From NCBI GenBank assembly GCA_044892525.1, contig CM097886.1:30070001-30134000 (forward strand): a stretch of DNA of 64,000 nucleotides, given 5' to 3'. The position numbers and the translations under genes were made by a program. The stretch is from Schmidtea polychroa. Taxonomy: Eukaryota. Of the stretch, positions 3,391 through 30,124 are shown in pieces. The notes under the pieces were generated by a model, which was not told the DNA's origin, searched no databases, and saw nothing but the letters and a program-made list of their open reading frames with translations. The number at the start of each line of letters is the position of its first letter. The first letter of the stretch is position 1.

Positions 3391-3486
3391 CAAACGTAAT
3401 CGTAGAATGATCCATATGAATTAATTTCATGACATATATTCCAGTTATTTCATAAATTTTGTAAAACACAACTTCTGGAGCACAAT

Positions 3487-4385
3487 CAGGGATGCTTTCC
3501 TACCGGTTCGCACCGGTTCGTGCGAACCGTTAGATGTAAATTATATGGTTTGTGCGAACCGCCTATTAAAATAAGCGAAAAAAAAATACACAAAAAAAAA
3601 TTATTTAAATAAAATTTATTTACCATTTGGTGCAAATTTATATAAACAGTCTGAAAATTTTATCTAGTTTTCATTGCGATTCTAATTTTTTACTTTATAG
3701 AAATCTTTCAGTTAATTTAAAAAAATTAAAAAAATTTTAAATTTTATCAAGTTACTATAGATAGATATATATACGTAGAAGTTAAATCTAAATATTTGAT
3801 TTTATCAGTTATTATTTGTTTTGTTCTGTTCAGTTTTTATACATTTAAGTTAATTATTTTTCTAATAAAACCGAAGATTTTTCAAAAATTTAATAAGGTA
3901 AGTTCAATTAACTATTTTCATGCTTTAAGTTAAAAAATTTATTTTTAAATACCTATTTTATTTTTTGAAGATGAAGAGACAAAATATGTTAACCACATAT
4001 TTCTCGAAAAAAATGAGAGAGGAAACATCAGTAAGTAATGATAGCAGGTCGACTATAACAGAGACAGAAGCAGTTTCAATAACTTTACAGGAACAAATAC
4101 TAGAGATTCCCAGTTCCCAAAATGAGGACAATAATAATTTACAAAGCTGTTGGAATGCGAAACAGTTGAAGGAGTTTAAAATTAAATATGATGGGCTATT
4201 TGTCAGTAATCAGAAATTGGGATGTGAGTATTGTTTGAAAACGGAATCAAAACTTATATCTCAGGAATGGAAAAAATGTAAAGTTACGACATCGGGGAAA
4301 GACAAAATAGTGCAACAAGCATCTTTAAGGAAAGAAATGAGTGAATATTTTGCATCAAAAGCACACAAACTAGCTGTTATTCAAA
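3487..4385 (+). mobile_element. 5' fragment of a hAT transposon (KIAA1586/ZNF862-like transposase N-terminus)
   Basis: CAGGGATG terminus with ACCGGTTC subterminal repeats. ORF 3965-4456 contains KLGCEYC...SQEW...QQASLRKEMSEYFASKAH and then runs into unrelated sequence. Confidence 0.6.
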
Positions 4386-4633
4386 TTAATAGATTGTTCA
4401 ACTTTGGTAGCGATAGTAAGACTTTGAACTTGAATATCTTTGATATTATATTGTAAATTCTCGAATTCGATAGGTTTCTTACAACCCATTATACGACATT
4501 TACCATTTTTGAAAAATATAATAGTATATTTTCCAGTTTTGTCAATATATTGTTGTGGTTTACACTTGGGAAAATTCATCATACCAACAGTTTCCAAAGA
4601 CACACGACCCCTATAATTAATATTTGTCAACAT
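4370..4633 (-). CDS. TBP-like (TATA-box-binding-protein fold) ORF, C-terminally truncated
   Basis: LTNINY..., YTIIFFKNGKCRIMGCK and IQVQSLTIATKVEQSINL match in order the TBP motifs LQNIVS, TALIFSSGKMVCTGAK and FKIQNMVGSCDVKFPIRL (recalled sequence). Confidence 0.6.
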   Translation of the reverse strand: MLTNINYRGRVSLETVGMMNFPKCKPQQYIDKTGKYTIIFFKNGKCRIMGCKKPIEFENLQYNIKDIQVQSLTIATKVEQSINLNNS

Positions 4634-4740
4634 ATCTAGTGAATATTTATAAAAATTGAGTATATATATATTAATAGTATAATTAAATATTCTATCATTT
4701 ACGATATAAACAATATCAATTTTTAAATATACATATTAAA

Positions 4741-5367
4741 ATGGAACTAAGAAATGATGCTGTTTATCAAATAGTCGGACCAAGTGGTAGTGAAAAAACT
4801 TTGTTTGTTTGCAAATTACTAAAATCACATTTATTCAAATCAAAATTTAACAAAATTTATTAGCATAGAGGTGCTGATGAAGAACACGGATTGACTCAGG
4901 ATAATTTCTGTAAATTAAAACGTATGAAAATAGTAAAGGGATTTGATAAAAAGTGGTACAGTAGACTAAAGAAGGGAGATGTCATAATTAATAATGATTT
5001 GTATCAAGAAGCTAATAAAGAAAAGAATTTCAATAATTTATTTACCAAAATCAGTTGACACGTGAGTGTAACGGTTATTTTTATAACTCAAAATTTATTT
5101 CATCAGGGCGGTGCGCATAGAACTCGTAATTTAAATGTTCAATATTTGGTCGTTTTTAAAAACCCTAGAGATGCAACAGGTATTGATTTTCTTGCAAGAC
5201 AGGCATATCCATATAATCGTAATTTTCTGATAAATACATTTCAAGATGCTACAAAACAACCTCATGGATATATATTTCTTGATTTCACTCAACAATGTCC
5301 TGATGATTTACGAGTGAGAACCGATATTTTCAATAAAGAAGGGTCAATGGTTTATAAACAAAGTTGA
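4741..5367 (+). pseudogene. Polinton A32/FtsK-type packaging ATPase
   Basis: ATG 4741; Walker A-like GPSGSEKT; Walker B-like VIIINDL; IFITQNLF, YLVVFKNPRD and HGYIFLDFTQ motifs; two in-frame stops. Confidence 0.9.
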
Positions 5368-5385
5368 AACCATGTTTAACTGATC

Positions 5386-5890
5386 ATGTTTTTGAGAGCG
5401 AGAGTTAAAATGTTTGGAAAAGGTACTGAAAAAGAAAAAATTAAAGTTACACCAAAAACAAGTTATACACCTCCTAAAATACTTGTTACAGAAAATTTTC
5501 CATCAATGAATCTCATCTCAAAAAATCCAAAACCTAAACCAATAAAAAAGCTTAAACAAGTAAAAACAGTAAAAAATCATCGTAGTTTTCCATTTTTTAA
5601 TGCATTGTTAAAGGCACCGAGCATGAAAAGAATGACTATTTTACACACATTTCCTAATTATGTTGTCGATGATTTACTTGATATTATACTCAAAGTAGTC
5701 AAAGGCAAGAATTAGCAAATCTGACAAAATTATTTTAAAAAAGTACCAGAAACCTCTTTTGATGCTAGTCAATAATAAAAATCGCAAACAAATGAGAAAA
5801 ATTATATATAAACAACAAGGAGGGTTTATTGCTGCATTAATACCATTGGCATTATCATTATTAGGCGGAGCAGGTCTATTAAATCATCAT
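5386..5890 (+). pseudogene. Polinton basic core-like protein with QQGGF tail
   Basis: Lys-rich ORF 5386-5715, followed after stops/frameshift by KQQGGFIAALIPLALSLLGG, the typical Polinton small-protein C-terminus. Confidence 0.6.
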
Positions 5891-5959
5891 AAACAATGGG
5901 TTCTAATCCTTCCTTACCTAATTTAAAATTTGATTTCAAATCTTCATGTTGTAATGGAG

Positions 5960-6687
5960 AAGATATGGACGAACCCAAAAGACGAAGCAGGTTTTGGTGG
6001 AGTCGAAAAGTTAATATTTGTACTATCAAATTCATTATTTTTCTTTAGGAAAGGAATTTTACAACAGTAAAGTGAAACAAATCCTGGATAAACTCAAAAT
6101 CAATCATTACTCTGTGCATTCTCAATTCAAAGCCGCTCATGTTGAAAGATTTAATCGAACCTTGAGAGATAAGCTAAAATAATTGTTTGTGCATCAAGGT
6201 AATAAGATGTGGATAAATATTTTGCCTAAAATTATATGTGGTTATAATCATTCATCGCATCAAGGTTTGAAAGGTTTAAGACGTGTAGATATTTCATCAT
6301 AACAATCTATTGATTTACAGTTTTCGAAAAAGGCTGAAAAAATTAAAAAAACCAAAATATAAAATCGGTGATCACGTTAGAATTAGTAGAATTAGTGCAT
6401 CTCCATTCATAAAAAAATTTGATACAAACTGGAGTGATAACGTCTTTGTAATTTCGAAAATCAACACTAAACAATATCCAGTAATGTATGTCATTAAAGA
6501 CTATGATCAAAATATTGTACAAGGGAAATTTTATGAACAAGAATTACAAGTCATTCCTTCACCAAAGGTTTTTAGAATTCAAAAAATATTGAAAATTATA
6601 GAGAATGGTGAGGATAAACAATACTATGTGAAATGGCATGGATATCAAAACCCTACGTGGATATCAGCAAAAGATTTAGTAAAGTAA
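5960..6687 (+). pseudogene. Polinton retroviral-like integrase with C-terminal chromodomain-like region
   Basis: KAAHVERFNRTLRDKL, GYNHSSH, YKIGDHVRISR, QGKFYEQELQ and YYVKWHGY motifs; stops and frameshifts. Confidence 0.9.
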
Positions 6688-6920: not shown

Positions 6921-9592
6921 CAGTGTTTCCCAAAGTGGGCGATATCGCCCCCCCCCTGGGGGCGGTAGAGCTATCCAGGGGGGCGACAGTAGCCGACAGT
7001 ACAATTGGGGGTCGTTGAATAAAAATATAGGGGCGGTGGAAGCATTAAGAAAATTAAAAAAAACTCGTGTTCGCACAATGTTGTTAAATTACAGTTAAAT
7101 TTTTAATGAATACGTTATTTTACAATACATTTGTTCCATGTAAAAAAAATTGTGTAAAAAAAGCTCATATGAAAGTCACATTTTTCTGTCACTTTTCTCT
7201 CGCAATTTCATTAAATCTATGCACTTTTTTGCACGATCGTGTGAAAAAAGAGTTAAAAAAATTCGTGTGAAAAAAGAGTTAAATGTAGGCGACATACGTG
7301 AAATCTAATTCATTATTGTTTCTAAATTGTGTGTGACAAGTAATTAACAATATTGCAAATGATATAAGTGATTATGAATTTGAATTTATATTGATCACTT
7401 TTATCTTTTTGGTTAAATATATATTTATTACATGTGATTATTTTAAACATATTTTCTCTCATAACTCTGTAAGTTTTTGTGTCTTCTAGTATTTATTAGT
7501 ATTTTAGTTAAAACCCGTTATTTTTAATTTTATATCACCATAATTTTTTATAGATAATATCATGAGTGGACCTAAGAAAAAATGTAGACAATATAGTGTT
7601 GAATACTTGAAATTTGGCTTTATTCAGTCGTCCACAAACCAAACATTACCAATGTGCCTGATATGCCAAAAAGTTTTATCAAATGAAGCTATGAAGCCTT
7701 CAAGAATGCAAGAACATTTAAAGAAAGTTCATGTTGATAAAAAAGATAAAGATTTATCATATTTCCAATCACTAAAAGACAAATTTATGAAACAACCGTC
7801 ATTGCAAATCTATTTTCAGTAGCATTCAAACAAGATGACGATGGTCTGCGTGCTTCTTACAATATATCGTTATTGATTGCTAAATCAGGAAAACCTCATA
7901 CTGTTGGTGAACAACTAATTCTACCGGCTATAAGTGAGGTAATTCGAACTATGCTACATAAGCCAGCATCTGATATTATCAAGAAAATTCCTTTGAGCAA
8001 TAATACAGTGCAAAGAAGAATTGATGAAATGGCTCAAGATGTTGAATACTCGCTATATAATTATCTAAAAACAGCCCAGCATTTCTCTATACAGCTTGAT
8101 GAGTCAACTTTGCCAGGAAATGAAGCCTTACTTTTAGCTTACGTGCGATTCATAAAAGAAGAAAAAATTTGCCAACAGTTATTATTGGCAAAAATTTGCA
8201 GACTGATACTAAAGGAGAGTCGATATTTCATGAATTGGACGAGTTTTTTAAAGAAAAAGAAATCCCCCTGAGTAATATCTTATCAGCTGCTACTGATGGT
8301 GCTCCAGCGATGGTAGGGCGCTACAGAGGGTTTCTTGCTTATTTAAAAAAAGCGGTGCCGAATGTATTAACTATACACTGTGTCATTCATCGTCAACATT
8401 TAGTTGCCAAAAATCTGAGTGAACGTCTACATAGGTCATTGCATTATGTCATTAAAGCAATTAACAAAATAAGAAGCAATTCATTGAATGACAGATTGTT
8501 TAGACAACTTTGTAGTGAAAACGATGAAGAATTTAATCGCTTGCTGCTTCATACAGAAGTTCGTTGGCTGTCAAAAGGTGCCTGTTTGGCTAGGTTCTAT
8601 AAACTCTTTGACCTAGTGCTAGTGTTCCTAGAAAACAAAGATGATGCTTTACGAGCCAAATTGATTGATTCAAAAAATGACGTAGCTTATTTGACAGATT
8701 TGTTTCACAAATTTAATGAATCAAATCTACAGCTCCAAGGCGATGACCTGAACTTAATTAAAACAAAAACGGTTATTTCTTCATTTGTAGCAAAACTTCT
8801 TCTGTACAAACGAAATTTGGGAAGAGGAGAATTCAGCCAGTTTCCAAATTTATCAACAGTGGAAAAACATGATGAAGACTTGATTGCTTATTGCCAGCAC
8901 TTGGAGGCTCTTCATTCTGACTTCAATACACGATTTGAAGATATTCTTAAAATGAACATACCCGATTGGGTTTTGGACCCTTTTTCAAATGCAAATACAG
9001 AAGAATCTCCAAAATTACAAGAAGAACTGATAGAAATAACAACAAATGAGGAATTAAAATTTAAATTCAAAAACGGCTACCAGTTGTTTTGGCTGCAAAA
9101 GCAAATACCCACGCTTTATCCTGGATTATAGGCTATCGTACAGAAGTTCGTACAGAAGCCTTTCTATCATCTTATTTAGTGGAACGTGGTTTCAGTGCGG
9201 TCACAAATATGCTTACCAAAAAGAGAAACCGACTGCAAATAACTAATCGTGGTGATTTAAGAATGCTTCTGACAGAAATAGAGCCAAATGTAAATAAATT
9301 GGTAGCAGTACACCAGGTTCATCCTTCTCATTAGGATTAATATTAATTTTCTATGTATTAAAAATGAATTTCTTTGATTTAATAAATAATTTTATAATTT
9401 GAAAGTCAAGGTGCCTTATAACAACATCTTTCTTTATTTTGTCCCCTAGGTACAAATATAGATACATAAAAAACCCACTGTAAATTTTAGTTCGTTTGCT
9501 TAAATCCTTAAATAATGAAGAGTTCCAGGGGGCGTTAAGTAATTTTTTTTATGAAAAAGGGGCAGTAGGCCAAAAAAGTTTGGGAAACTATG
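6921..9592 (+). mobile_element. hAT transposon, Buster/Charlie (ZBED5/SCAND3-like) type
   Basis: TIRs CAGTGTTTCCCAAA / TTTGGGAAACTATG; perfect 8-bp TSD ATGTAGAA (6913-6920, 9593-9600) with central TA. Confidence 0.95.
7562..9334 (+). pseudogene. Buster-type hAT transposase, frameshifted
   Basis: BED-type CLIC...MKPSRMQEHL; FSIQLDESTL; ATDGAPAM; HCVIHRQHL; HTEVRWLS; SSYLVERGFS; spread over four ORFs. Confidence 0.93.
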
Positions 9593-10360
9593 ATGTAGAA
9601 GATCGAATTGATATTGGTCCTTCCGATTCAATTGTCAAAATGTATATTGATCGTCAATATTTAATAGTTGAATGTAAATATCATAGTAAATAGTTTGACA
9701 ATGGCAAACGATTGGAATTAACAACTCAGAGTAACAGAAATCATACCAATATATTCCAAGTACTACGGCCGGGATTTACCAAAGTAGCAGCGCGATATGA
9801 AACAATATCAATGAAATTTGAGTTTGAGGGTGAAACTGAAAATACATATACATTTAATGACAATTTATACATAACCAAACTCGATGAATCGCAAACATAT
9901 TTAATTCAAAATTGTGGATATATTTTCAAATCTCTAGAACTTCAAGAAAATAAATATTTCAGATTCTCTTTGAATAATGACATTTCTGAAATTACCTTTG
10001 ACAAAAACCTGATAAAAACATTAGGGTTACCTAAAGCAACATATCTGCAAGACGATAAAATTAATGAAGGATCAAGTAAACCGGCATTAATTAAACTTCA
10101 TCATCAAATGTTCATCTATACTAATATTATTGAACCCATAATTGTTGGTGATTCCGCGGTTCCTCTATTGAAATCTATTTGGATTGAGAAACATGACCAA
10201 GATGATGTTGTACAAATAATAATGGAAAATCCGATGTATTTACCGGTTTCAACCTCGTGTATAAACTATATAGAAATAAATATACGCGATGATTTTGGTA
10301 AATTAATCGATTTTGCACAAGATTCAAAAACTCATTTGACGCTACATTTTCGTAAAGTCG

Positions 10361-10735
10361 ATGGCTAATTCCGATATCATTAGTATGTATAGTGGTAGCC
10401 AAGCTGGTGGTGAATTACCATGTTTTATTGGTAAACAATATGGATCCGGTTGGTTGCGGACGATTGGTAGATTTGCACTCCCGATTCTTAAACGTATAGG
10501 TATTTTTGGTATGAAAACTGCTAAAGATGTCATTATGAATGATCAAAAGATTTTACCATCTCTGAAAACTAATGCCTTATCCGAACTAGGAAAAGTTTTA
10601 CCGGGTGTCGCGGGCATGTTTCAAAAAGAAGAAAAAACAGAACCACCTCCAGCAAATGTTCCAAAACGTAAAAGACACAGGTCATCATATATAAACAAAG
10701 GGATGAGAGGACATGGAACTATATTTGAAAAATGA
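10361..10735 (+). CDS. Polinton/adintovirus small virion protein (PW/pX-like)
   Basis: QAGG..P.F.G.QYGSGW..IGRFALPIL motif; lies between penton and major capsid with overlapping start/stop codons. Confidence 0.7.
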   Translation: MANSDIISMYSGSQAGGELPCFIGKQYGSGWLRTIGRFALPILKRIGIFGMKTAKDVIMNDQKILPSLKTNALSELGKVLPGVAGMFQKEEKTEPPPANVPKRKRHRSSYINKGMRGHGTIFEK

Positions 10736-11688
10736 TTTGCGGTAAATCTGAATTGTGTATATTTGATCGACCATCGTCTCAAGCTGTAATCGAATATGGA
10801 GCATTCGAAGAAGTTTTTCCAATGAACTCTATTACAGATAGTAGAAATGATGTGGAATTTTACATCAATGGTTCTCAAACTGAATATTTAGTTTTGAATG
10901 ATACGTTATTAACTGTTCAGATCAAGGTTATAGATAAAGAAAAAAAGGCATTGGGTGATGCTGATGCTACGATACCTAATAATTTCTTGTTTCATAGGCT
11001 TTTTAAAGATGCTATTCTTGGATTTAATAATATCAAGATTGAAGGTGGCAACAATACATATATTCACAAGGCGATAATAGAAACTATTTTAAATTAGAAT
11101 ACCGATACTAAAAATACATGTCTCCTATGGGCTATGCGGCAACTGATGACGAAAGAAAAAAGTGGATTAAGGGCTCAAAGATTTTTACCATGTGTTCATC
11201 ATTACAGCTAGACTTTCTAGATCAACCAAAATATTTACTTCCAGGAGTCAATGTGCACATTAGGTTGAAAAGAACCGATTCTGTGTTAGGTTCGATGGGT
11301 ATGTATTCGAACTAACACAAAAACGTTTATCTGACTCCAAAAATTTATAACGCGTGTAGGTAAATAAATAACAAATATGATTTAAAGATTTATTAAAAGT
11401 AAATATATATTTGTACACAATTGTTGATATTACAAAACAACCTATGTGCTTCTTAAAGGACAGAAAACGGTTATACAAACTAAGAATCAAGGCTGGCCCT
11501 AAATGCGCCAACAGCCCGATATAGGTGAACGGAAAAGAGATAGGGAAGTTTACCTAATTTTAACGCGATAGAGTCAACCCAGAAATCGGTTAACCCTTTA
11601 AATTATATCTGAAACGAGACAACAACAAGAATGATATGTGCTGACGTTACAATCCCCCTTAATATAATTTTTAAGTAATTGAATAAAT

Positions 11689-11729
<41 letters not shown>

Positions 11730-12178
11730 AAATCAAGAAATACTAGCTAATTATTTAATTCCAATAAAGGCGAGATAAACCACAGATTGGTTATCGAAAC
11801 TGCTACAAATATTCTCTTTTCTTCTTTAATTGTTACTCAATACTCCAATAGATACTGGAGTTTAGATATAGTATTAATGAAACAAAAATTCCAAGAAAAT
11901 TGTTAATCATCTTTCCAATCAATAAATTGACTATCAAATTAGTAGTGAATGTCGAATCAAACTTGAATGGCAAATCAGATAGCTGCTAGAAATTTCTGAA
12001 TCTAATAATAGCTGTTCCTTTCCGCTATTCTTGATCTTTTCTGTCGAGTACTATTTTTCTCTTCGTCCCTGTAGTCAAACCAATTAAATCAATATAAATA
12101 TTAAATTAATATTTATATTAATAATAACATATTTAAAAACTTTGTTTTAATATGTTATTAATTTGATAAAAATAGAAT

Positions 12179-12991
12179 TTGAAAAAGTCGTCTTACTTAT
12201 TAATAATAATGCAAATCAATGTAGAAGACAACATTGGTGTCAGAAGTGTGGCTCAAGAAAGTAGTCACATTCAAATGAAAATTTCAACATTTTTCGACAA
12301 TGTCGCAGTCTGGTTTCAACAAGTGGACGCAGCACTGGAACTGGCCTCAATCAGAAACGAAAAAACCAAATATTTTCACTTGTTAACCAGCTTACCATCT
12401 CGCGTTCTCGAAGAGTACTCGGATTTAATGGATCCACATATCAAGCAGCCATATTCAGCACTTAAAGAAGCAATTATTAATGACTCAAAAGGATCAACAA
12501 CGGAGGCAGCAAACAAACATTTACAGAAACAGGAACTTGGGGATCGGAAACCAAGCCAACTCCTTAGAGAATTAAAAAGAAACTATAAAATAATGGAACC
12601 CAATGGTGACCCAGAAACGAGCAAAATTCTCAGACATCAGTTCATTAACTCCATGCCAGTTCACATTCAATACCTTCTAATATCGAGCAAAGTTGGCATT
12701 GATGAGTTGGCCAACATCGCCAACTTGCACGTAAGCATCAATGATCAGCATATCTCACCGGTGGGAAGTCAAAATATTGCCGGAAACTTCCATCAGCTTG
12801 CAATAGAGAACCTGCAAGATCAAATCAATGCCATAAGGGCAAACGAAAGCTCTAGTCGAAAGGAACGTCATTCGAGTGAAGAAACAATATGTTATTTTCA
12901 CAGACGATTCGGAATAAAAGCCAGGAAATGCCAAAAACCGTGTTGCTGGTCTGATTCAGTTAAGTCGGGAAAAGGCCAAGGATCTCGTTAA
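12179..12991 (+). CDS. Gag of the gypsy element
   Basis: WFQQVD...KTKYFHLL, ELGDRKPSQLLREL and C.FHRRFG.KA.KC..PC motifs typical of this gypsy clade. Confidence 0.9.
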   Translation: MKKSSYLLIIMQINVEDNIGVRSVAQESSHIQMKISTFFDNVAVWFQQVDAALELASIRNEKTKYFHLLTSLPSRVLEEYSDLMDPHIKQPYSALKEAIINDSKGSTTEAANKHLQKQELGDRKPSQLLRELKRNYKIMEPNGDPETSKILRHQFINSMPVHIQYLLISSKVGIDELANIANLHVSINDQHISPVGSQNIAGNFHQLAIENLQDQINAIRANESSSRKERHSSEETICYFHRRFGIKARKCQKPCCWSDSVKSGKGQGSR

Positions 12992-15867
12992 TGTCGACGA
13001 CAGAGATCCAATGCTCAACTCAACAGTCGACAAAGATTAATGCAATTTTCACTGTTCCAGTCCTCTATGACAATAAATCATATGATTTTCTCATTGATTC
13101 TGGGGCAGATGTCAGCGTTATCCCAACAAAAATATTTAAACCCGATTCCAGAATTGCACCGATCAGACTCATAGCGGCTAACAACTGTAGCATAAAAGTA
13201 CATGACTCAAAAGTTCTACACTTTACGATTGAAGGTCAAAAGCAGCATTTCAAATTGGAATTTATCGTAGCAGATGTTTCTCGCCCAATTCTTGGGGCAG
13301 ACTTTCTATTATATTATAGATTTCTAGTGGATTGCAAAAATGCTAAAATCTTCATCGGAAATACAGCTATCACAAATGTTAATAAAGGAAGCAATTCAGT
13401 CAGCTCTGAGCATGCAATGGCAATCGAAACAACTGGGCCACCAATTGCGCAGTCAGTAAGACGCCTGGGTGGACGCATGCTTGAAGCCGTTCAAACTGAA
13501 TTCGATACCTTGATCAAAAAGGGAATCCTAAGGGAAAGTAAGAGTGACTGGGCGTCACCATTGGTAATAGTTAAGAAGAAAGATGGATCAATACGCCCAT
13601 GCGGTGACTACAGACTCCTGAACTCAGTCACGAAAGTCGACAAATATCCTCTGCCCAGAATAAGCGACATCTTAGATCAACTCGGGGGAAGCAAAATATT
13701 TTCAACGATCGATCTGGAAAAGGCATATCACCAAATCCTAATTGAAGCAAACGACATCCCAAAAACAGCAATAATTACACCTTTTGGGCTATACGAATAC
13801 CTCAAAATGCCTTTTGGACTGAGGAAAGCATCACAAACTTTCCAAAGATTCATGGACAAGCTTCTACGTCCATACAGGATGTTCTCCAGAGCGTACATCG
13901 ATGACATAATCATTTTCTCTAAATCGAATGAAGATCATGAAAAACATTTGCAAACAATCGAAAAAGTTCTAAAAGATGCACATTTATCAATAAATAAAGA
14001 TAAAAGCTGATTGGCTAAAAATCAGGTTAACTTTCTTGGATTTCACATTTCAGACTCAGGAATCTCACCCCAAACCGATAAGATTCAAGCAATCACCTCC
14101 TGTTCAAGGCCAGGCGATGCTAAGGCACTGAGACAATTTATTGGAATGGTAACATTCTATCACTGGCTAATACCGAATTTGGCGGATATAATGGCTCCGT
14201 TACATGAACTGACATCAAACGGAGCAAAAGACAAACGTAAATATATCTGGAAAGATCAACACTCGCAAGCATTTGAAACGGCAAAGAAAAAACTGCAAGA
14301 AATCACTGAAATGATCCCTCCAGATTCGCAACGCACATTCATCGTATGCACGGATGCATCGGACATTGGAATTGGTGCAAGCCTTAATCACAGAACGGCA
14401 GAAGGTAAACTTACACCAATCAGTTTTTTCTCTAGAAAGCTCAACAAAACTGAACAAAGATATTCAACATTTGACCGAGAACTATTAGCTGCCTATTTAG
14501 CCATCAAAAATTTCAAACATCACCTGGATGGCAATACATTCAAATTATTAACCGATCACAAGCCATTGGTATACATAAATACAATGAAAGACCCATCCAA
14601 TAGACAATGGCGATGGATCCAGTTCATAAACGAATTTGATGCAAAGATAATTCACATCAAAGGGAAAGACAACATTATCGCAGATTTCCTATCAAGACAA
14701 TCTAATTCAGACAACAATACTCTCAATATTGTTGAGACTGTGCCGATGACAAAAAATGAAATAATTAATCAACAAAGACAACAATCATTCGCCCAAACCT
14801 TGAAGCCAAATCACTCATTTAAAATAAGTATAGATGATGACGGAATCCTAGTGGATATGTCTACTGGCTCCCCTCGAATAATACTGCCAGAACCATTTCA
14901 ATTCAGGGAATTCCAGCGGCTTCATAATTTATGCCACCCAGGAGCAAATGGGACAATAAAATTGATATCGTCAAAATATGCGTGGCCCTGTATGCGAGCA
15001 CAAATTAGGGAGTGGTGTAGAATGTGTGAAAAGTGTCAAAGAAATAAAGTGACGAGACACACAAAGTCGAGCTTGAAGGAACTTCCAGAAGCAGGAAAAT
15101 TCAAAGTCATTCATATCGACATTGTCGGCCCACTCCCATCAGTAAATAATAAAAGATTCATGCTTACTATAATTGACAGACACACCTTATGGCAAGAAGC
15201 AATTCCTATCTCTGATATCACAAGCAGTTTAGTAACCAAAACAGTAGAAAATGAGTGGATAGCTCGATACGGAGCCCCCGAGATAATGATCACAGACAAT
15301 GGTAAGCAATTCATTTCATCCACATTTAGAGAATTCTGTGAAAAGCACAACATCGATCACAGACACACAACACCATACCATCCCCAATGCAATGGCAAAG
15401 TTGAAAGATTTCATAGAACTCTCAAGACGGCTTTGAGAACACATTCAGAAGATGCAAATAGAAATTGGGCCCATGATCTACCATTGGTATTACTGGGGCT
15501 TCGAAATGTCGTTTCAGAAGACAATAATCAATCACCAAGCCAAGCGGTCTTTGGAATCAATGGGAAACTATCTGGAGACACTACAATTAAAAGAACTAGA
15601 AAACAAAATTGGAAAACATTCTTTCCAGAGGATTTGAAGACATGCACTCATGTATGGCTTAAAGTGGAAACAAGAACAACTTTAAGGGCTATGTATGATG
15701 GACCATTCCAAATTATTAGTCGAAGCCCAGACCTCAAAACTTTCGAAATTCAACTTCCGACAAGAAACCTTCGTGTTTCGGTAGACAAGTTAAAACCCGC
15801 GTACATTTCAACCAATAACAAATCACTCCTTGATCTAGGTGGAGGGCTATGTAGTCAAACCAATTAA
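12991..15867 (+). pseudogene. Pol (PR-RT-RH-IN) with one in-frame TGA at 14008-14010
   Basis: LIDSGADVS protease; RPCGDYR, YIDDII RT; CTDASD RNase H; HNLCH/C..C and DIVGP...TDNG...ERFHR integrase. Confidence 0.93.
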
Positions 15868-17039
15868 ATCAATATAAATATTAAATTAATATTTATATTA
15901 ATAATAACATATTTAAAAACTTTGTTTTAATATATTATTAATTTGATAAAAAAAGAATTTGAAAAAGTCGTCTTACTTATTAATAATAATGCAAATCAAT
16001 GTAGAAGACAACAGTCCCCCCAACTCAACTTTTCGACTGGTATTTATACCATTTTATTTATTTAAATCTATTAATAGCAATTATTTAATTACTATTTTTA
16101 TTATATATTTTTAAACAATTACTATTTTTGTTACAAATCTATTTTTAGTAATTGTTTATTACTATTTATATTTTAATTCTAATTTTAGTAATTTTTAAAT
16201 ACTATTTATATTTTAATTCTAATTTTAGTAAATTTTTTAAATACTATTTTTAATTAATTATTATTTAATTCCAAAACTTTTGATTCCGGTTCCTACTGAA
16301 CCCCAACATCTGCATTGTCACTAACTAGTGCTAATGGTCAACCAATATGTCAATTATTTGATGAAAAAATTACTAGTAAGACGAGTTCGAGTTGATCCGT
16401 CGATATTAACAGGTCATCAGTTGGGTCTTAATTTTAAACATGCAATCTATCCACTGAAAACCAAAGAAATTGTTTCATTTGCAATAGCCAAAGGTGCAAA
16501 GGAACAAATATTTGGAAATAGAAGAATGCCAAACTTTATTTTGATAACATTTCAATCTGAAACTCAATATAATAAATCATACAGTGTTTCAAGCTCAATT
16601 TTCAAAAACTTTGGTGTTACATCCTTGTCATTATCTAAAAATACTGATTATAGAGAAACATAATCAAGATTTTGATAATGATAATTACTGTGCTACATAT
16701 ATGTAAAGTATTGTGAAAAATATGGGCTATTTAGATAAAAATTTGAATTGTGTTATAACTCTAGAAGAATTCAAAACCAAATATCCGTTCTTTACATTTG
16801 TTTTGGCACCTGATTTTGATTTTGAATCAGAGTCAATTACCTCAAAATGGAAATTTACGATTAGATATAAAGTTTGCAAAAGCTATTGTAAAACCTGTGC
16901 ATGTTATAATATATGGAGTATTTGAAAATGAGGTACAAATTACTGGAAATAGAGCTGTTCTGGTATAGGTATAAATGCGTTTGGTAATATTAAAAATTTG
17001 TCATGGAGTAAGGTCTTCGTGTAATATTTAATTTATTGA

Positions 17040-17532: not shown

Positions 17533-20500
17533 ATGGATTCAAACAATTCAAAAGTTGTTGATGGTCATTTTAAATTTTAATTTTATATAGTTATTTACTT
17601 TATTATTTTAGATGTTTTTATCGGAGATTGGTTCCTGATTACGGAAAATGAAGATCTCCTGAATATTTCCAGAATTTTTGAAAATTGTAAATTATTTTAA
17701 TTTTATATATTTTTTTTAAACATGCATATTTTAGTTGTAATTAATGAAGAAATAAATTATGTCTCCGATGGGATAATTATGGAACCCGAAGATGTCCATG
17801 AAAAATTTTGGTGTTTTTTGTTTTATTTTTTATTTTATATGTTAATAATTATTGTAAGATGATATAATAATTTCCAACGAATTACTTACATAACCAGGTC
17901 ACTAGACCTTGATATCTATTGAATGATGCGGGAATGCTTGTATAACTAAATTAAGTAAGTGTGTTTGTCTTCTGTGTCAACAGTATCACTTAAACTAATA
18001 ATTCTCCCTTTTGTAGATTACGCAATTCAATGTACTATAAATAGTATAACGATTGTGTGTTCCGTTTAGATTTTTGAAGTGAATAAAGATTTCTGTAAAA
18101 CTATGTCTTCTTCTAACATGGCGACCACGCCAGGACTCCAGAACTATATCAAGCCACCTAATCAATTGCTGCCAAATGGTGATTTAGAAATTTTTATTTT
18201 TGAATTGAAGAGATTTTTCGAAGTCACTCAACAACCGCAAGAAACTTAAGAAATTTTTACCAAGGCCTTTCTGTCGGTAGAGTTGATCCAGAAATATGAA
18301 GAAGTACAGAGCGATTATTCAGGCTATGAAGAAAGATTAAGAAAAGCGTTCGAGCTAAGGAAAAATCTAGCCATGGATCTAGACGCAGCTTTAAGATATC
18401 GAAAAGGAAATGACTCGTGCACCGAATTTTTCAATAAAGTGGAAAAGCTCGTCGACAATGTTCTTCGACACAAATTAACAAAACCGGCATTAATGTTATT
18501 TTTAATGCAGAATGCAATGGAAGATATGGAAACAAAAAAAGAATTGAAATTAAGAGAAGTTAAATCAGTAGATAAGGCCAAGGAAGTGATATCAAGAATG
18601 GAAGAAATTCAAAAAGAGCTTTCAAGTGAACAATCATTAGCATTTCTACATGAAAATAAATCATATGCGGAGACAGTCAAAAGTCCGAGAAAAACTCAGT
18701 TGTACCCACAAAATAAGACGCCAATATTTTCTAACTCTAGAACCAATGAGGCCGTGAACTTCAATATGCCAAATAAAAGTGACTGGAAGAACGGGACCAG
18801 GCGATTTAGACTGCAGTGATGTTGGGCGTGTGGAGAGCAAGGACATATTCGAGCAGAATGCCCAAACGTAAAATGCTCTCAATGTTCCAAAAATGGTCAT
18901 TTCAAGTATCAATGTTGGGACATCAGAAGAAATTCAGTTAAAACAGAAGCATATTACAACGGAAGAAATTATGATAAAAATCAAAAACAATTTGGATCCA
19001 GAGGACAATATCAAAGCAGAAACCAATCTTCAGACAGAGGACAACATCGAAGACAATGCAAAGCGATATACGACTACAAATACGAGGAAGGAGAGCTGAT
19101 TCAACAGGATGACATGCAAAAAGATTGCGAACAGCTAAAAGGGGAGGCTCCAGTTTCAAGGGAGTTGCTAGGAGCCATAAATTTGGTTTAAGTAAGTATA
19201 TTGTTGACACAGAATGTTTGAATTTGAATGCTTGTGATTTCAAGAATTCCGTAATGAATGAATTTAAAGATGATTTAAAAATTAATGATGTAATTATGAA
19301 TGATTGTGAATGTTTTGACTTTGAAAATTTTTTGAATATAGTTTTTATGAAATTAATAACAAAATTGATAAGATTATGAGTATCGATATAATTAATAATA
19401 AAGTTAATGAAAATAAAGAAAGACCTTTTGCACCTAAATTCGTTTATGAAAGAATGAATGGCAGACCTAGTGTAGGTATTTGGCTGGAAAATAAAATAAA
19501 AGTTGATTGTCTTTTGGATATCGGGGTTAGAATAAACGTGATTAGCGAAGATGTTGTTAGTAAATTAAAGATGCGTGATAAAATAGGGGAATCCAATATT
19601 ATGGTTACATGTGCAAACGAGAGCACACTTAAAATCATAGAAACAATATTACTAAAAGTGAGAATTTCGGGATTAGAATTGGTAATAAGATTCTTTGTGG
19701 CAAATAAGATTAACCCGAGCGTAATTGCAGGCGTAGAAATGATGAATTGTTTTGATATTAAATTACAAGCAGTAACTAAAGTAAAATTAAAAAATCAATT
19801 AATGAATTTAGAGGAAAACCATTTGAAAGGAATTATCGACCCAACGATTAATAAATTACTTAAAGAATTTTCGGATATATTCATGAAAAATAAATGGGAT
19901 GTAGGAAAAACACAGTTAATTAAACATAAGATAGTTACTAGAGGTAGCCCAGTGACAATTAATCCTAGACGTCAGCCGATTCATATTGCTCACAAAATAC
20001 TAGACATGCTAAAAGACATGGAAGAAGCAGGAATTATAAAAAAATGTGACTCGGTGTGGAATAGCCCATTGGTATGTGTGTTAAAAAAGAATAAATCAGA
20101 TATTAGAATATGTTTGGATTTTCGGGCACTAAATTCAATTACGGAGAGACCTCGATTTCCAATACCAAATATTGAAGAGATGCTGGATATCCTAAATGGA
20201 GCACAGATATTTAGCACTATCGATCTTGGTAATGCTTATTATCAAGTGGAATTAGAAGAGGAATCAAAAATAAAGACTGCATCTTCAACAAAAGATGGTC
20301 AATATTGTTTTAACCGAATGCCTTTTGGAATTGCAGCTGCCCCAGCAACTTTTCAAAAATTAATGACTCAAGTTTTGGGTGATCTTAATTGGAGAGAAGC
20401 AATTGTCTATTTAGACGATATCCTTATATTTTTAGACAATGAAATCGAACATAAAAAAAGACTAGAAAGAGTTTTTCGAAAGATTCAAGAAGCTGGTTTG

Positions 20501-22641
20501 AAAATAAGCTTAGAAAAATGTTGTTTTAACAAACTAGAAATAAAATTTTTGGGACAAATTATAAATATAAAAGGTATTAAGACAGATTATGAAAAGATAA
20601 AAGCAATGCAAGAATACGAAAAACCAAAATGTATTAAACGTTTAAGAAGCTAGCTTTCTAGGCTTAACAAATTATTATCGAAAATTTGTTAAAGATTACG
20701 CCAAGTATGCCAGACCATTAGAAAGGTTATGTGGGTCTAACAAAGATAAACGTATATGGACTGAAGAATGTGAAACAAATTTCAACACGCTAAAGAAAGC
20801 GTTAACGTCTACCCCAGTACTAGGATTTCCGGATTTACGAAAAACCTTTATTTTAGATACAGATGCTAGTTTCGATACGATTGGGGAGTGCTTTCGCAGT
20901 TGAGTAGTAATGGACATGAACAAGTTATTGCATATGGATCAAAGACAATGAATAAGCACGAAATCGGTTACTGCATTACGCGAAAGGAATTGCTTCCAAT
21001 CTATCATTTTACTCAGCATTTCAAACACTATCTATATGGAAAAAGATTTACTTTAAGAACCGATCATAAAGCTATAACCTTTATGATAAATACAAAAAAG
21101 CCAATTACAGCACAATTCCAAACATGGATTAACTATTTAAGTGGGCTAGATATCAAATTAGAATACAGAAAAGAAGAATTGCATGCTAGCGCAGATGCCC
21201 TATCAAGAAAAGACTGTACTTCATGTAGTTAGTGCCAAACAGTTCATGAAAACGCCAAGGTAGATAAAAATAAAACTAAAATATTGGCCATAGAAAATAT
21301 GGACCAAGAAATAAGAATAAATAATGAAGGTATAATTTTTAATATACATTAAGACTTATGTCACGCAGAGGTAAAAATAATTTACGAATATGCATGGAAA
21401 AATATGAAAATAAAAATTAGTGAAAACGAAGTTAGAAGAGTGATTGAAAATTGTGAACAGTGTCAGAAACGGAAGACGTGGACAAGACGAACAAAAGAAC
21501 CGCTGATTAAACAGACTACAGATGAAGTTTTCAAAGAGATATTTATTGATTTCTGCGGACCATTTAAGAAACCAATTCATGGAAAACAATATATTTTAGC
21601 TATAATTGACCAATTCAGTAGGTATATATCATTGACGGCAGTTGCTCATTAGGATGAAAAGACGACGGCAAAGATTTTAAGAAAATTGGATTTTGAAATT
21701 TGGTGCCCCTAAAATCATTCACTCCGATAGAGGAAAAACATTTGAATTTCAACTCCTTTTAGAAGTGTTGAAAACTTATCATATTACAATAATATATTCA
21801 AGCCCATATCATCATAGTACAAATGGGTTAGTTGAGAGGCAATTTAGAACTATAAGGGATGCAATTGCAATTACGTTAAAAGACAAACGGCATAAAGATT
21901 GGGCAGAAATATTGCCAGATGTGAAATTTATGTTAAATGCGACGATACAGCAGACAACCGGATTTTCGCCCTCTGAAATAATATTTGGGCGGAATATTTG
22001 TAGACAATGGATGGAAAAAGAGAATTTGGATATACAAAATAATGATGCTAATAATCGGAGAAGGGAGATCGTGGAGGGAATTAAACATAAACAAAACATA
22101 GAAAAGAATTTAATTACACAAAATTATAGGAATTTTGAAGTTGGAGACCAAGTATTGGTTAAAAAAGAAAATACTAGAAAGATGGATGAACGTTATGAAG
22201 GGCCTTATGAAATAACTGGAAAACGACATAACAGAAGCTATGTTCTAAAGAATAAGCAAGGCAAAGAAATAATTCGAAATGTAGAATGGACCAAAAGTTT
22301 TAAATGGAGGGGGATGTAAGATGATATAATAATTTCCAACGAATTACTTACATAACCAGGTCACTAGACCTTGATATCTATTGAATGATGCGGGAATGCT
22401 TGTATAACTAAATTAAGTAAGTATGTTTGTCTTCTGTGTCAACAGTATCACTTAAACTAATAATTCTCCCTTTTGTAGATTACGCAATTCAATGTACTAT
22501 AAATAGTATAACGATTGTGTGTTCCGTTTAGATTTTTGAAGTGAATAAAGATTTCTGTAAAACTATGTCTTCTTCTAACAATTATAGTAATAATATTAAT
22601 GATTTTTATAATAATGATTTTAATAATATTTATAATTTTTA

Positions 22642-23650: not shown

Positions 23651-24072
23651 CTTGTTTTAAATAATAAATGCTGCTACCATGCANNNNNNNNNNNNNNNNN
23701 NNNNNNNNNNNNNNNNNNNNNNNNNNNNNNNNNNNNNNNNNNNNNNNNNNNNNNNNNNNNNNNNNNNNNNNNNNNNNNNNNNNNNNNNNNNNNNNNNNNN
23801 NNNNNNNNNNNNNNNNNNNNNNNNNNNNNNNNNNNNNNNNNNNNNNNNNNNNNNNNNNNNNNNNNNNNCAATATTAAACAATTAAATGATAATTTAAGCA
23901 TTTGTTGTCAAGTATATATTTAATAAAATGAAATATAAATTCAAAATATAAATTTGCCACTAAAATATTAATAATATATAACTACGACTTGTTTATTTTA
24001 TATTTATCAGGTTCTTTATATCCTCGATACTGTGTATCTGGAATCGGCCATAACTCCAAATCCCATGATCGA

Positions 24073-26237
24073 ATGACATCATATTACGGTCGTAGATTCA
24101 GCGGAATCGAATATTTTATATGTCCCAAATGCAAGACTATTAACCCTTCTACTTTTAAAGAGTTTTATAGTGAACATTCTACACATTTAAACCAGTTTTT
24201 ATCAAATAAGAAGGAAATGTTTAGAGAAATCTTTAATAGGCAATCTCTTAATATAATAAATAATAATAATAACAATAAAAGGCATGCAGCAAATAAAAAT
24301 GAAGTTGTCGCAATTAAAATTATTAAAAAAGAGATTATAATTATAAGTGACGATGACGCCAATGTTGCTGAATTCCCCTCGTATTCCTATTAATCAAGTA
24401 GGAGGAGCTTTACATGTAGACGATGATTTTCATACAAACATGTAATTATTATAGACAATGACAGTAATATTGATGATGCTTATGTGCCACATCATCCTCA
24501 CCTTGATATTATACATAGATCCAAAGTTATTGATGGCATACCTGTGTACTTGCTACTTCTTGAAGATGGTGATAACTATTATTATACGGCCATTATGAAC
24601 TTGCAACGTTTAATGAATTGTCATCCTAATATAGATTGCTCGATTACAACATGCTTTTGATAGACATGTTGCATTGTGTAGTAAAAATCAGATAGGAACG
24701 ACTCTTTACACTCTTCCTACAAATAAAAACTTGCAATTCGAAAGTTTTGCAAAAACTATTACCTCACCATTTGTAATTTATGCCGATTTCGAATCGGTTT
24801 TACCTAAAGATGTAATACATCATCAAATACATTATCCAATTAACATTTTAATTAACAACTACACAAATACAAAATCATATTATAATTTCATTGGTACTGA
24901 TTGTGTTTTGAAATTTTTGTGTAAGATTGAAGAGATTGCTGACACAATAGTTATCCCCTATTATGAAATTCATGGCAAAACACCTCTAAAAACTATGACT
25001 TGGGCCGAAAATCGTGCTTTCAGTTTGTCTACAACCTGTTAACTTTGTACAAAATCTATTATTCGCAAAGTTCGAGATCATAATCATTTCTCTGGCAAGT
25101 ATCTTGGTGCTGCCTGTAGTAAATGTAATATTTCTCGGCGAATTCAAAAACAGCTTCCTGTAGTTTTTCATAACTTGAGGGGGTATGACCTTCATCATAT
25201 TTTGAAATTTGGTCTTGATAATTTTCCATCGTGGGAGTTGAATATTATCCCTACTAGCACTGAAAAATTTATATTATTAATCTCTTATATCAAAATATTG
25301 CCTGTTCGTTTTATCGATAGTATGCAATTTGTTAATTGTTCTTTGGCAAAGGCTGTAAAAACTCCTTTGTCGGATCTTCCTTTGACATCATCTGCTTTTG
25401 AAGGTTCTATTATGACTTGTAAAGGCATTTTCCATTATAATTTTGCTACTTCATTAGAAATTCTAGAATCTACTCTTGAATTGCCACCAATTTAGGATGA
25501 TGTTACGGTAGATGAATATGCTACTGCCCAACAAATTTGGACTAGGCAGAATTGTAATAATCTTTTGGACTACATGTTAACTTATCTTAAATTAGATGTA
25601 TTTCTCTTGGCTGATTATTTCCAACAATTCCGTGCAAAGGCCATTGCTTACAATGGTCTTGAACCTCTGAATTTCTATGGCATTCCTGGTATGTCATGGG
25701 CATCAGCACTCATGACGTTACAAGAGCCGATCGAACTTTTGCAGGATATGGAAATGTTCAATTTTTATGAGGGAGGAATGCGAGGTGGTTTGACATTTGT
25801 TAACAAGCATCATGTTTCAACTTTGGAGAATACAGAATTATTATATATTGATATTAATAATTTGTATGGTTGGGCTCTTAGCCAAAAACTTCCGTATTCC
25901 GATTTTACTTGAATTTATAATAATCTTGAATCTATATTGCATGAGTGTGTAAATTCGGATATTGAAACACTTTCATATGGTTACACTATGGAAGTCGATA
26001 TAAATATCCCTAATCTGTTGCAAGGTTATTTGAATGATTTCCCTCTTGCTCCGGAAAACATGTGTCCACCCGGTTCTAAAGTTGAAAAGTTGATGCTCAC
26101 GCATTGGGCCAAGAAGAACCATGTTCTTCATTGGAGACTTTTAAAACTTTATATTGAATTGGGAGCAGTCGTTGTAACTGTTCATCGTGCCATTAAATTT
26201 AAACAAGCATCAATTTTTAAAACAATTTTTAAAACAT
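24073..26237 (+). pseudogene. Protein-primed family B DNA polymerase (pPolB), 3'-truncated
   Basis: VIYADFES, KVRDHNHFSGKYLGAACSKCN, FHNLRGYDLH, RFIDSMQF, YLKLDVFLLAD, RGGLT, YIDINNLYG, DFPLAPE. Later polymerase motifs are absent (cut by foldback DNA). The 24073-24393 part may be a separate ORF. Confidence 0.92.
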
Positions 26238-29580: not shown

Positions 29581-30124
29581 AGTGTAGGCCACTACAACAA
29601 TTATGTAATCAAAAAATGTAAGTTATTAAATTATCGTCAATTTTAATGGAATTTTTAAACGAAGGTTTGGAAGTATATTTGACTAATTTACTGTCGGTTG
29701 TACAAAGACGAAGATTCATTCTCCTTAAATTTTCTATAGTTTTACCATATAAACTGTTATTTTACAATTTATAATAATTTTTGTCTAAACTATTTGTACC
29801 TTTTGCTCTTAATTCGGTATTGTTGTCTATATATTTTTTAAAAATTGGAGATTGCTTAAACCTTACAGCTCTATTTACGCATGTAACTTTAACACCAAGT
29901 GCCAAGTATAATTTTAATAATCTCCAATGAATCACATAATTACATATCTCATATCAAAATAAATAACTTCCACAACAACACCAAAACTATAATTAAGTAT
30001 TACAAGATCTAAAACAGTAAAGGAGTCTCGTCAATATCGACTACACAAGATCTCAGATAACACACAATGTCAAAGATGTATTACGCAGACTTGACATGCA
30101 GGATTAGAACATAGGCGCAATCGA

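Follow-up and report, generated by a model that had tools for sequence, protein, structure and literature searches.

Beta- and gammaherpesviruses encode a TBP of their own (vTBP; ORF24 of KSHV and BcRF1 of EBV) that goes with TATT late promoters, according to a passage of PMC7498053. The Polinton locus analysed here resembles the system outlined in that passage in combining a viral TBP fold with a TATA-like box that departs from the canonical one and precedes structural genes, and in having no RNA polymerase of its own. In contrast to vTBP, the Polinton protein is not a close homologue (BcRF1 was reached only at a Foldseek E of 0.011) and is a bare core of 145–170 aa, too short to house an N-terminal domain that binds Pol II; it goes with another box and gives no sign of a six-protein complex, and its late expression is putative. 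By analogy, the likeliest reading is that the Polinton system would work like the herpesvirus vTBP/TATT system without being a member of it.

TBP-like proteins of giant viruses (the asfarvirus B263R homologue, Heterosigma akashiwo virus TBP and mimivirid TFIID) matched the Polinton protein at the level of the fold (E 2.6e-08 to 1e-03), but at 10–21% identity. Many giant viruses with TBP-like proteins bring their own RNA polymerase. In contrast, the end-to-end 16-kb Polinton copy has no ORF longer than ~410 aa except polB, and none fit for a multisubunit RNA polymerase. Cellular TBPs (PF00352; yeast, human and archaeal cores) share with the Polinton protein the two-repeat saddle (22–26% identity, Z 11–13), three of four intercalating phenylalanines and the EPELF second stirrup. 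The Polinton protein differs from them in consisting of the core only (145–170 aa), in its rebuilt first stirrup, in a polar and family-specific DNA face, in the absence of helix H2 in the window's subclade, and in being encoded by a mobile element.

On virus maps, a 'TBP' label stands in the Fig. 5 legend of Starrett et al. 2021, for a MELD virus from non-animal datasets (PMC8502044). As here, it denotes a TBP-like gene in some virus with an adintovirus-like PolB, but it is a legend entry only: sections 3.2 and 3.4 of that paper give no family, structure or promoter, and the labelled gene may belong to this family or to another. A VLTF3-like late factor is reported for some polintoviruses in part of PMC11131425; this is also a transcription factor on Polinton-type elements, but it belongs to another protein family, and no promoter box is described in that part. 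For TBP or TATA, the texts of PMC11071308, PMC11131425, 10.1101/2023.08.22.554363, 10.64898/2026.06.19.733378 and PMC12220804 held nothing relevant. Beyond the Starrett legend, we found no description of the TBP family or the box in the Polinton literature; figures, supplements, RepBase and subscription papers may name the gene. The system is apparently a conserved, undescribed variant of a viral switch of known type. Our main reading, to which we assign a probability of about 0.6, is that a divergent Polinton TBP binds the box YATAAACR and starts host Pol II there, in an early-to-late switch.

The window locus and intact copies in the same genome

The window is the whole stretch of 64,000 nt that was analysed. 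The initial annotation had placed in it an 87-aa minus-strand ORF with three TBP motifs in order, lying 107 bp from the ATG of a Polinton packaging ATPase and cut off by a hAT fragment. The three motifs were present in that order at 4370–4633, and the distance agreed with an ATPase ATG at 4741. The features of the locus are as follows.

3396..3486, minus strand: remnant of the ORF located after TBP in complete copies, where Polinton DNA resumes
3487..4378, plus strand: 5' part of a hAT-like transposon truncating the TBP-like gene (~91% match to hAT-like copies)
4370..4633, minus strand: 5' half of the TBP-like gene (87-aa ORF; 86 codons, which cover repeat 1 and run into repeat 2)
4634..4740, no strand: divergent spacer of 107 bp separating the start codons of the TBP-like gene and the ATPase
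4661..4671, minus strand: (TA)n tract ~28–38 nt upstream of the TBP-like ATG, differing in length among copies
4705..4712, plus strand: YATAAACR box, 36 nt upstream of the ATPase ATG
4741..5367, plus strand: A32-type packaging ATPase with two in-frame stops
5353..5360, plus strand: YATAAACR box in the last ATPase codons, 33 nt upstream of the next ORF
5386..5845, plus strand: conserved Polinton ORF 'PZ-like', frameshifted
5954..6684, plus strand: integrase remnants (rve and Chromo matches on a natural copy)
9799..10735, plus strand: 3' part of a 355-aa ORF (minor-capsid-like) and a 124-aa ORF
10690..10697, plus strand: YATAAACR box, 42 nt upstream of the major capsid ATG
10732..16956, plus strand: major capsid gene, in pieces 10732–11288 and 16309–16956 around an LTR-type insert
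24043..26221, plus strand: protein-primed polB remnants, with a further inverted piece at 29627–29941

We use 'PZ-like' as a presumptive working label for the conserved ORF, and the 355-aa ORF is presumably minor-capsid-like, judged by its position. The ATPase of a natural copy matched Pox_A32 of Pfam (E 8.6e-08). The capsid family profile matched a PF21738 protein (E 7e-06), an assignment that is weak by Pfam, with two weak capsid matches among 10 members.

The hAT DNA at 3487–4378 did cut the TBP-like ORF, at 4377, and the frame closes a few bases inside it. The event was not a plain insertion, however: since Polinton DNA restarts at 3396–3486 after ~370 missing bases, a deletion accompanied the insertion. 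The hAT ORF continues in copy L140, with a weak DUF659 match (E 0.0014). The window Polinton copy is dead: two in-frame stops interrupt its ATPase, and the genes farther downstream are fragmented. The inserts breaking it comprise a BED-finger (hAT-like) transposase and two of LTR-retrotransposon type (window 7562–9131, 12209–15867 and 18373–22319). In the spacer, the (TA)n tract is a candidate canonical TATA for host TBP; it ranges from ~5 to 58 units among otherwise near-identical copies (window and L002–L030), and this variable length could tune the TBP promoter.

In the own genome (781 Mb), a first search yielded 3697 candidates; the 150 that were scored all had 98–100% identity, so the TBP-like gene is present there in at least 150 near-identical copies. 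At DNA level, the window fragment was 96–97% identical to 29 other own-genome loci; of these 30 loci including the window copy, 28 had an unbroken 170-aa frame from the same ATG and one had 138 aa. Full-length copies thus exist, as a 170-aa gene with a two-repeat TBP fold of which the 87-aa ORF is the first half.

Natural Polinton copies were ~16 kb long, with terminal inverted repeats of 0.9–1.2 kb in 4/4 copies; AGTAGT-type ends and a 6-bp target duplication were read in one of the four. They carried the Polinton core set of integrase, protein-primed polB, A32 ATPase and jelly-roll capsid (the last weak by Pfam). The adenovirus-type maturation protease was seen in seven related locus clusters and was not recognised in copy L034; 15 weak matches to it in the own genome are unmapped. 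In the contigs of four sequencing runs, two poly(A)-like loose ends appeared, in single contigs of one run; they are too weak to use as a sign of expression. No TFIIB-like partner gene was found among 14 accessory ORFs scanned in Pfam.

Further features of these elements were observed. A trinucleotide-repeat expansion in the integrase (L034:1875–1950) keeps the frame in several copies, with lengths of 361–373 aa. Bcl-2-like and RING-finger ORFs occur in TBP-bearing Polintons (L176:4774–5208, L194:5017–5409, L143:1013–1570 and L187:4402–5484). The 340-aa minor-capsid-like gene is present as two tandem copies in one own-genome family (L186, L187, L192 and L183), and likewise in L069.

Fold, residues and phylogeny of the TBP-like protein

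The 87-aa fragment alone stayed below the Pfam TBP cut-off of 22.9 (PF00352, 16 bits, E 0.011); the whole 170-aa copy scored 62.5 bits (E 3.5e-17), and it matched 35 TBP sequences of the PDB at E < 3e-06. A structure model built from 94 sequences (pLDDT 93.4) was a two-repeat saddle, residues 1–149 aligning to human TBP 164–337, and so included the second TBP repeat. Its best structural match had a Z of 13.3 and an rmsd of 2.8 over 149 residues, and the best matches by Foldseek and VIA were all TBP. Among the matches listed, the top 38 PDB entries were TBP structures, and the next, a non-TBP entry, had a Z of 6.5. Significant profile and structure matches to TBP were thus both found, which spoke against the refutation that the initial annotation had allowed for. 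The long helix, described there as shortened, has no counterpart in the model between strand 45–51 and strand 65–77. The stretch that holds H2 measures 59 residues in cellular TBPs versus mostly 43–52 in the window's subclade; H2 is missing in this subclade and kept in the second one.

Residues were counted over the 94 sequences, with yeast numbering anchored by alignment. The acidic second stirrup was kept at sequence level (E186 equivalent in 90/94, E188 in 94/94); its acidic residues are the contact for TFIIB. Seven new near-invariant residues lie on or near the DNA face: N6 (91 of 94), R47 (92), M49 (94), S71 (91), R106 (93), C114 (94) and N116 (94). We take the DNA-facing role of these rewired positions to be that of their counterparts in cellular TBP. 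The DNA-facing residues thus appear conservatively rewired, with the TFIIB-side stirrup kept. Intercalating phenylalanines have a role in TBP, according to a passage of PMC12209930. Three of the four in canonical TBP were retained (equivalents of F116 in 94, F190 in 93 and F207 in 94 of the 94 sequences). The first stirrup is rebuilt relative to cellular TBP and has no conserved Phe under either register, for which reason DNA bending may differ from that by cellular TBP.

Searches found 107 homologues. A wider profile gave 860 matches at E ≤ 0.001, possibly with cellular TBPs included. In the 50% library, 67 representatives were found at E ≤ 1e-30. A tree was built of 49 rows, and the 34 family members in it formed one clade (100/99) that excluded host TBP, its five paralogues and the remaining eukaryotic and archaeal-like rows. 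Between families, dN was 0.25–0.40 versus a dS of 1.15–2.6 (12 computable pairs of 15; two were saturated and one was within-family); judged from these substitutions, the TBP-like gene is under purifying selection. Every related own-genome family with both flanks examined carried the gene, among the matches listed. These observations bear on the reading that the gene is a host TBP retrocopy of recent capture that does nothing for the element. The window copy is indeed dead, and single-exon TBP paralogues exist in the host, but the gene branches apart from host TBP and the paralogues, and the selection on it and its presence throughout the related families also speak against a recent capture. 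We consider such an origin exceedingly improbable, and it is effectively refuted by the separate clade and the purifying selection.

As side observations, the host has five divergent TBP paralogues besides canonical TBP, two or three of them single-exon (L046–L055). A canonical-like TBP (L058:9734–10282), which falls outside the Polinton clade, lies on an IMG/VR contig of 44.7 kb that also has polymerase-like ORFs. The IMG/VR search with the TBP alignment gave no family member and one other TBP-like match.

Linkage to Polintons extended beyond the own genome. Of 183 metagenome loci, 80 were kept; a Polinton core gene was present in 39 of these, and in 18/21 at loci of at least 4 kb. The head-to-head arrangement with the ATPase proved not to be general. 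It was found in 29/30 own-genome loci of the window's family, but after de-replication just 4 of the 22 loci that carry both genes showed it, which rules out that the two genes are always head-to-head. In the other loci TBP was tandem upstream of the ATPase (17) or downstream of it (1), and in another own-genome family the TBP gene lies beyond polB.

The YATAAACR box and its distribution

The box (T/C)ATAAAC(A/G) was found in the sequences upstream of the ATPase. With loci clustered at 85% TBP identity, it stood at −55..−20 in 22/25 cases for the ATPase, 9/9 for the PZ-like ORF, 5/11 for the capsid and 3/9 for the minor-capsid-like gene, and in 2/17 for the integrase, 1/7 for the 122-aa ORF, 0/2 for polB and 0/55 for TBP; for any ATG the value was 283/13241 (2.1%). 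Counted by ORF family at −60..−12, it preceded the ATPase in 24/28, PZ-like in 19/21, capsid in 11/15, PLA2 in 8/11, minor-capsid-like in 8/17, exonuclease-like in 13/18 and LRR in 5/5. It was rare or absent there before the integrase (3/21), protease (0/6) and 122-aa ORF (1/11), and was not found upstream of the TBP gene (0/61) or polB (0/7). The box is not purely a 'virion' signal, as it also precedes the LRR family and the family that, from a motif, we take to be exonuclease-like (it has no Pfam match).

Boxes showed a strand bias of 180:8 (not de-replicated), a preference for the core ATAAAC (40/45) over GTAAAC (3/45), and a distance to the ATG of about 30–45 nt (31–45 nt in 35/40). Since the box is only about 32–45 nt from the ATG, the transcript leader would be very short if normal TATA spacing applies. 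In copy L034 all eight boxes lie on a single strand, against a mean of 2.0 in shuffled sequences; none of 300 shuffles gave eight. The same box recurred across elements with ~30% polB identity. It was used by both TBP subclades (11/12 and 11/13), and because the subclade that keeps H2 has the same box (11/13), H2 loss is, by this comparison, unnecessary for the system. Upstream of the TBP gene itself, canonical TATAWAW was found in 24/54 versus 5% background, TCAKW in 35/54 versus 16%, and CCAAT in 19/54 versus 18%, a modest rise.

TATAAA and CATAAA are variant polyadenylation signals, and in many cases the box overlaps the 3' end of the preceding ORF, as would suit either a signal of that gene or a by-product of codon conservation. 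Yet the box precedes the ATPase in 4/4 divergent loci, which have no co-oriented upstream gene; the C after ATAAA is fixed, and boxes lie between genes as well as in each of the three reading frames, 15 of 24 ATPase boxes being intergenic. The reading as such a signal or by-product is therefore highly improbable, and the polyadenylation signal was rejected on these grounds.

TBP and ATPase divergences were correlated (Mantel 0.79, 0/2000 permutations), a value driven largely by two subclades, and in the ATPase tree all 25 TBP-bearing rows fell into one clade (81/58). Because the TBP-bearing ATPases form one clade and the contrasts are not independent, TBP and box may represent a single inherited gain rather than repeated co-evolution. 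A single gain would also fit a protein that binds element DNA outside transcription (at termini, a replication origin or in packaging), with the box as an unrelated trait of the lineage. The TBP gene often adjoins the ATPase (upstream in 21/22), and the divergent TBP of Giardia has shifted to other DNA substrates, as stated in a passage of PMC12209930. However, the box is TATA-like and at core-promoter distance, the eight boxes of L034 fall in its gene block with none in the right-end stretch L143, and the TFIIB-side stirrup is conserved; we hold such a role to be quite unlikely.

A distant Polinton family of the same genome, with a PLA2-integrase, a PF21738 capsid and a PF03175 polB, has no TBP-like gene between its termini. 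This family showed no box at the usual distance before the ATPase or capsid and no strand bias, boxes numbering 3+/3− and 4+/3− per 15 kb. It is the one clean TBP-less control, represented by two end-to-end copies and one partial copy. Its genes were observed to begin right after TATAAA or TAAA (L196:2863–10000, L226:1–7828; L225, L199, L179; L227, L209), reminiscent of the TAAATG starts of poxvirus late genes. In L196, the TBP-less copy directly adjoins a TBP-bearing element or sits inside its end. Viral TBP-less controls were absent because IMG/VR, searched with the ATPase or capsid alignment, gave no family member.

Five ATPase-selected contigs came from prokaryote assemblies. TBP and AATAAACA are present in one of them; the other four lack TBP and have no box before the ATPase. 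These four closer TBP-less contigs are weak controls, being partial and, in three cases, GC-rich. Because TATAAGA precedes the PZ-like ORF in two of the four, these may come from a different lineage that bears a TBP. This TATAAGA lies 40–60 nt upstream of the ORF in the two Polinton contigs, from an endosymbiont assembly (L170:5244, L173:967).

The initial annotation had left a choice between a basal factor of the virus's own and a TBP decoy. The basal factor gained from the matching promoter box, and the decoy became the less likely of the two. In its fuller form, the decoy reading has a host factor (forkhead, host TBP or a paralogue) read the box while the element TBP ties up TFIIB or TBP regulators and dampens host transcription. 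The kept second stirrup would serve this purpose, ATAAACA also fits a forkhead site, the host has its five paralogues besides TBP, and the Bcl-2-like and RING ORFs point to other host-interference genes in the elements. But a decoy could do without the seven new near-invariant residues of the DNA face. Nor would a box read by the host be expected to be one-stranded, bound to a distance and biased to ATAAAC over GTAAAC, to stay the same across such divergent polB genes, and to be absent from the TBP-less Polinton family of the same host. We regard the decoy reading as unlikely.

A putative transcription switch and host TFIIB genes

Under the main reading, that the Polinton TBP itself starts transcription at the box, the TBP gene would be expressed early from a host-type promoter with canonical TATA, often CCAAT and the initiator-like TCAKW. 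The protein would then recognise YATAAACR through the family-specific residues on the underside of its saddle and recruit host TFIIB through the kept second stirrup, so seating host TFIIB and Pol II on the promoters of packaging, capsid and some accessory genes. Mot1 and NC2 contact the convex face of TBP, according to a passage of PMC4565979, and helix 2 is tied to TFIIA and NC2 by the title of a reference in that paper. Loss of H2 in the window's subclade may free the protein from host factors that grip H2 and the convex face. We put somewhat better than even odds on the broader proposal that a wide animal Polinton clade has the smallest viral transcription switch, a bare TBP with a re-coded face acting on private YATAAACR promoters, in which protein and box were co-inherited and one branch shed the host-control helix.

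If true, this would be a natural altered-specificity, orthogonal TBP–promoter pair, useful for asking how TBP reads DNA and which surfaces Pol II initiation needs. Possession of a TBP dedicated to a box of its own would also be a sign of a staged viral life cycle in Polintons, and would provide a direct read-out of an element's entry into that programme.

On the host side, the canonical TFIIB gene is split by introns. PF00382 gave 13 matches in open frames of 301–310 aa, clustered at 38.2–39.1 Mb of host C3 and 23.8–24.2 Mb of C1. The two copies that were read (L229:4571–5476 and L230:4181–5086, both on the minus strand) each encode a single-exon, 301-aa divergent TFIIB with zinc ribbon and core, and within 10 kb around them no Polinton ORFs were found. 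The clustered divergent TFIIB genes are possibly an expansion of host TFIIB paralogues.
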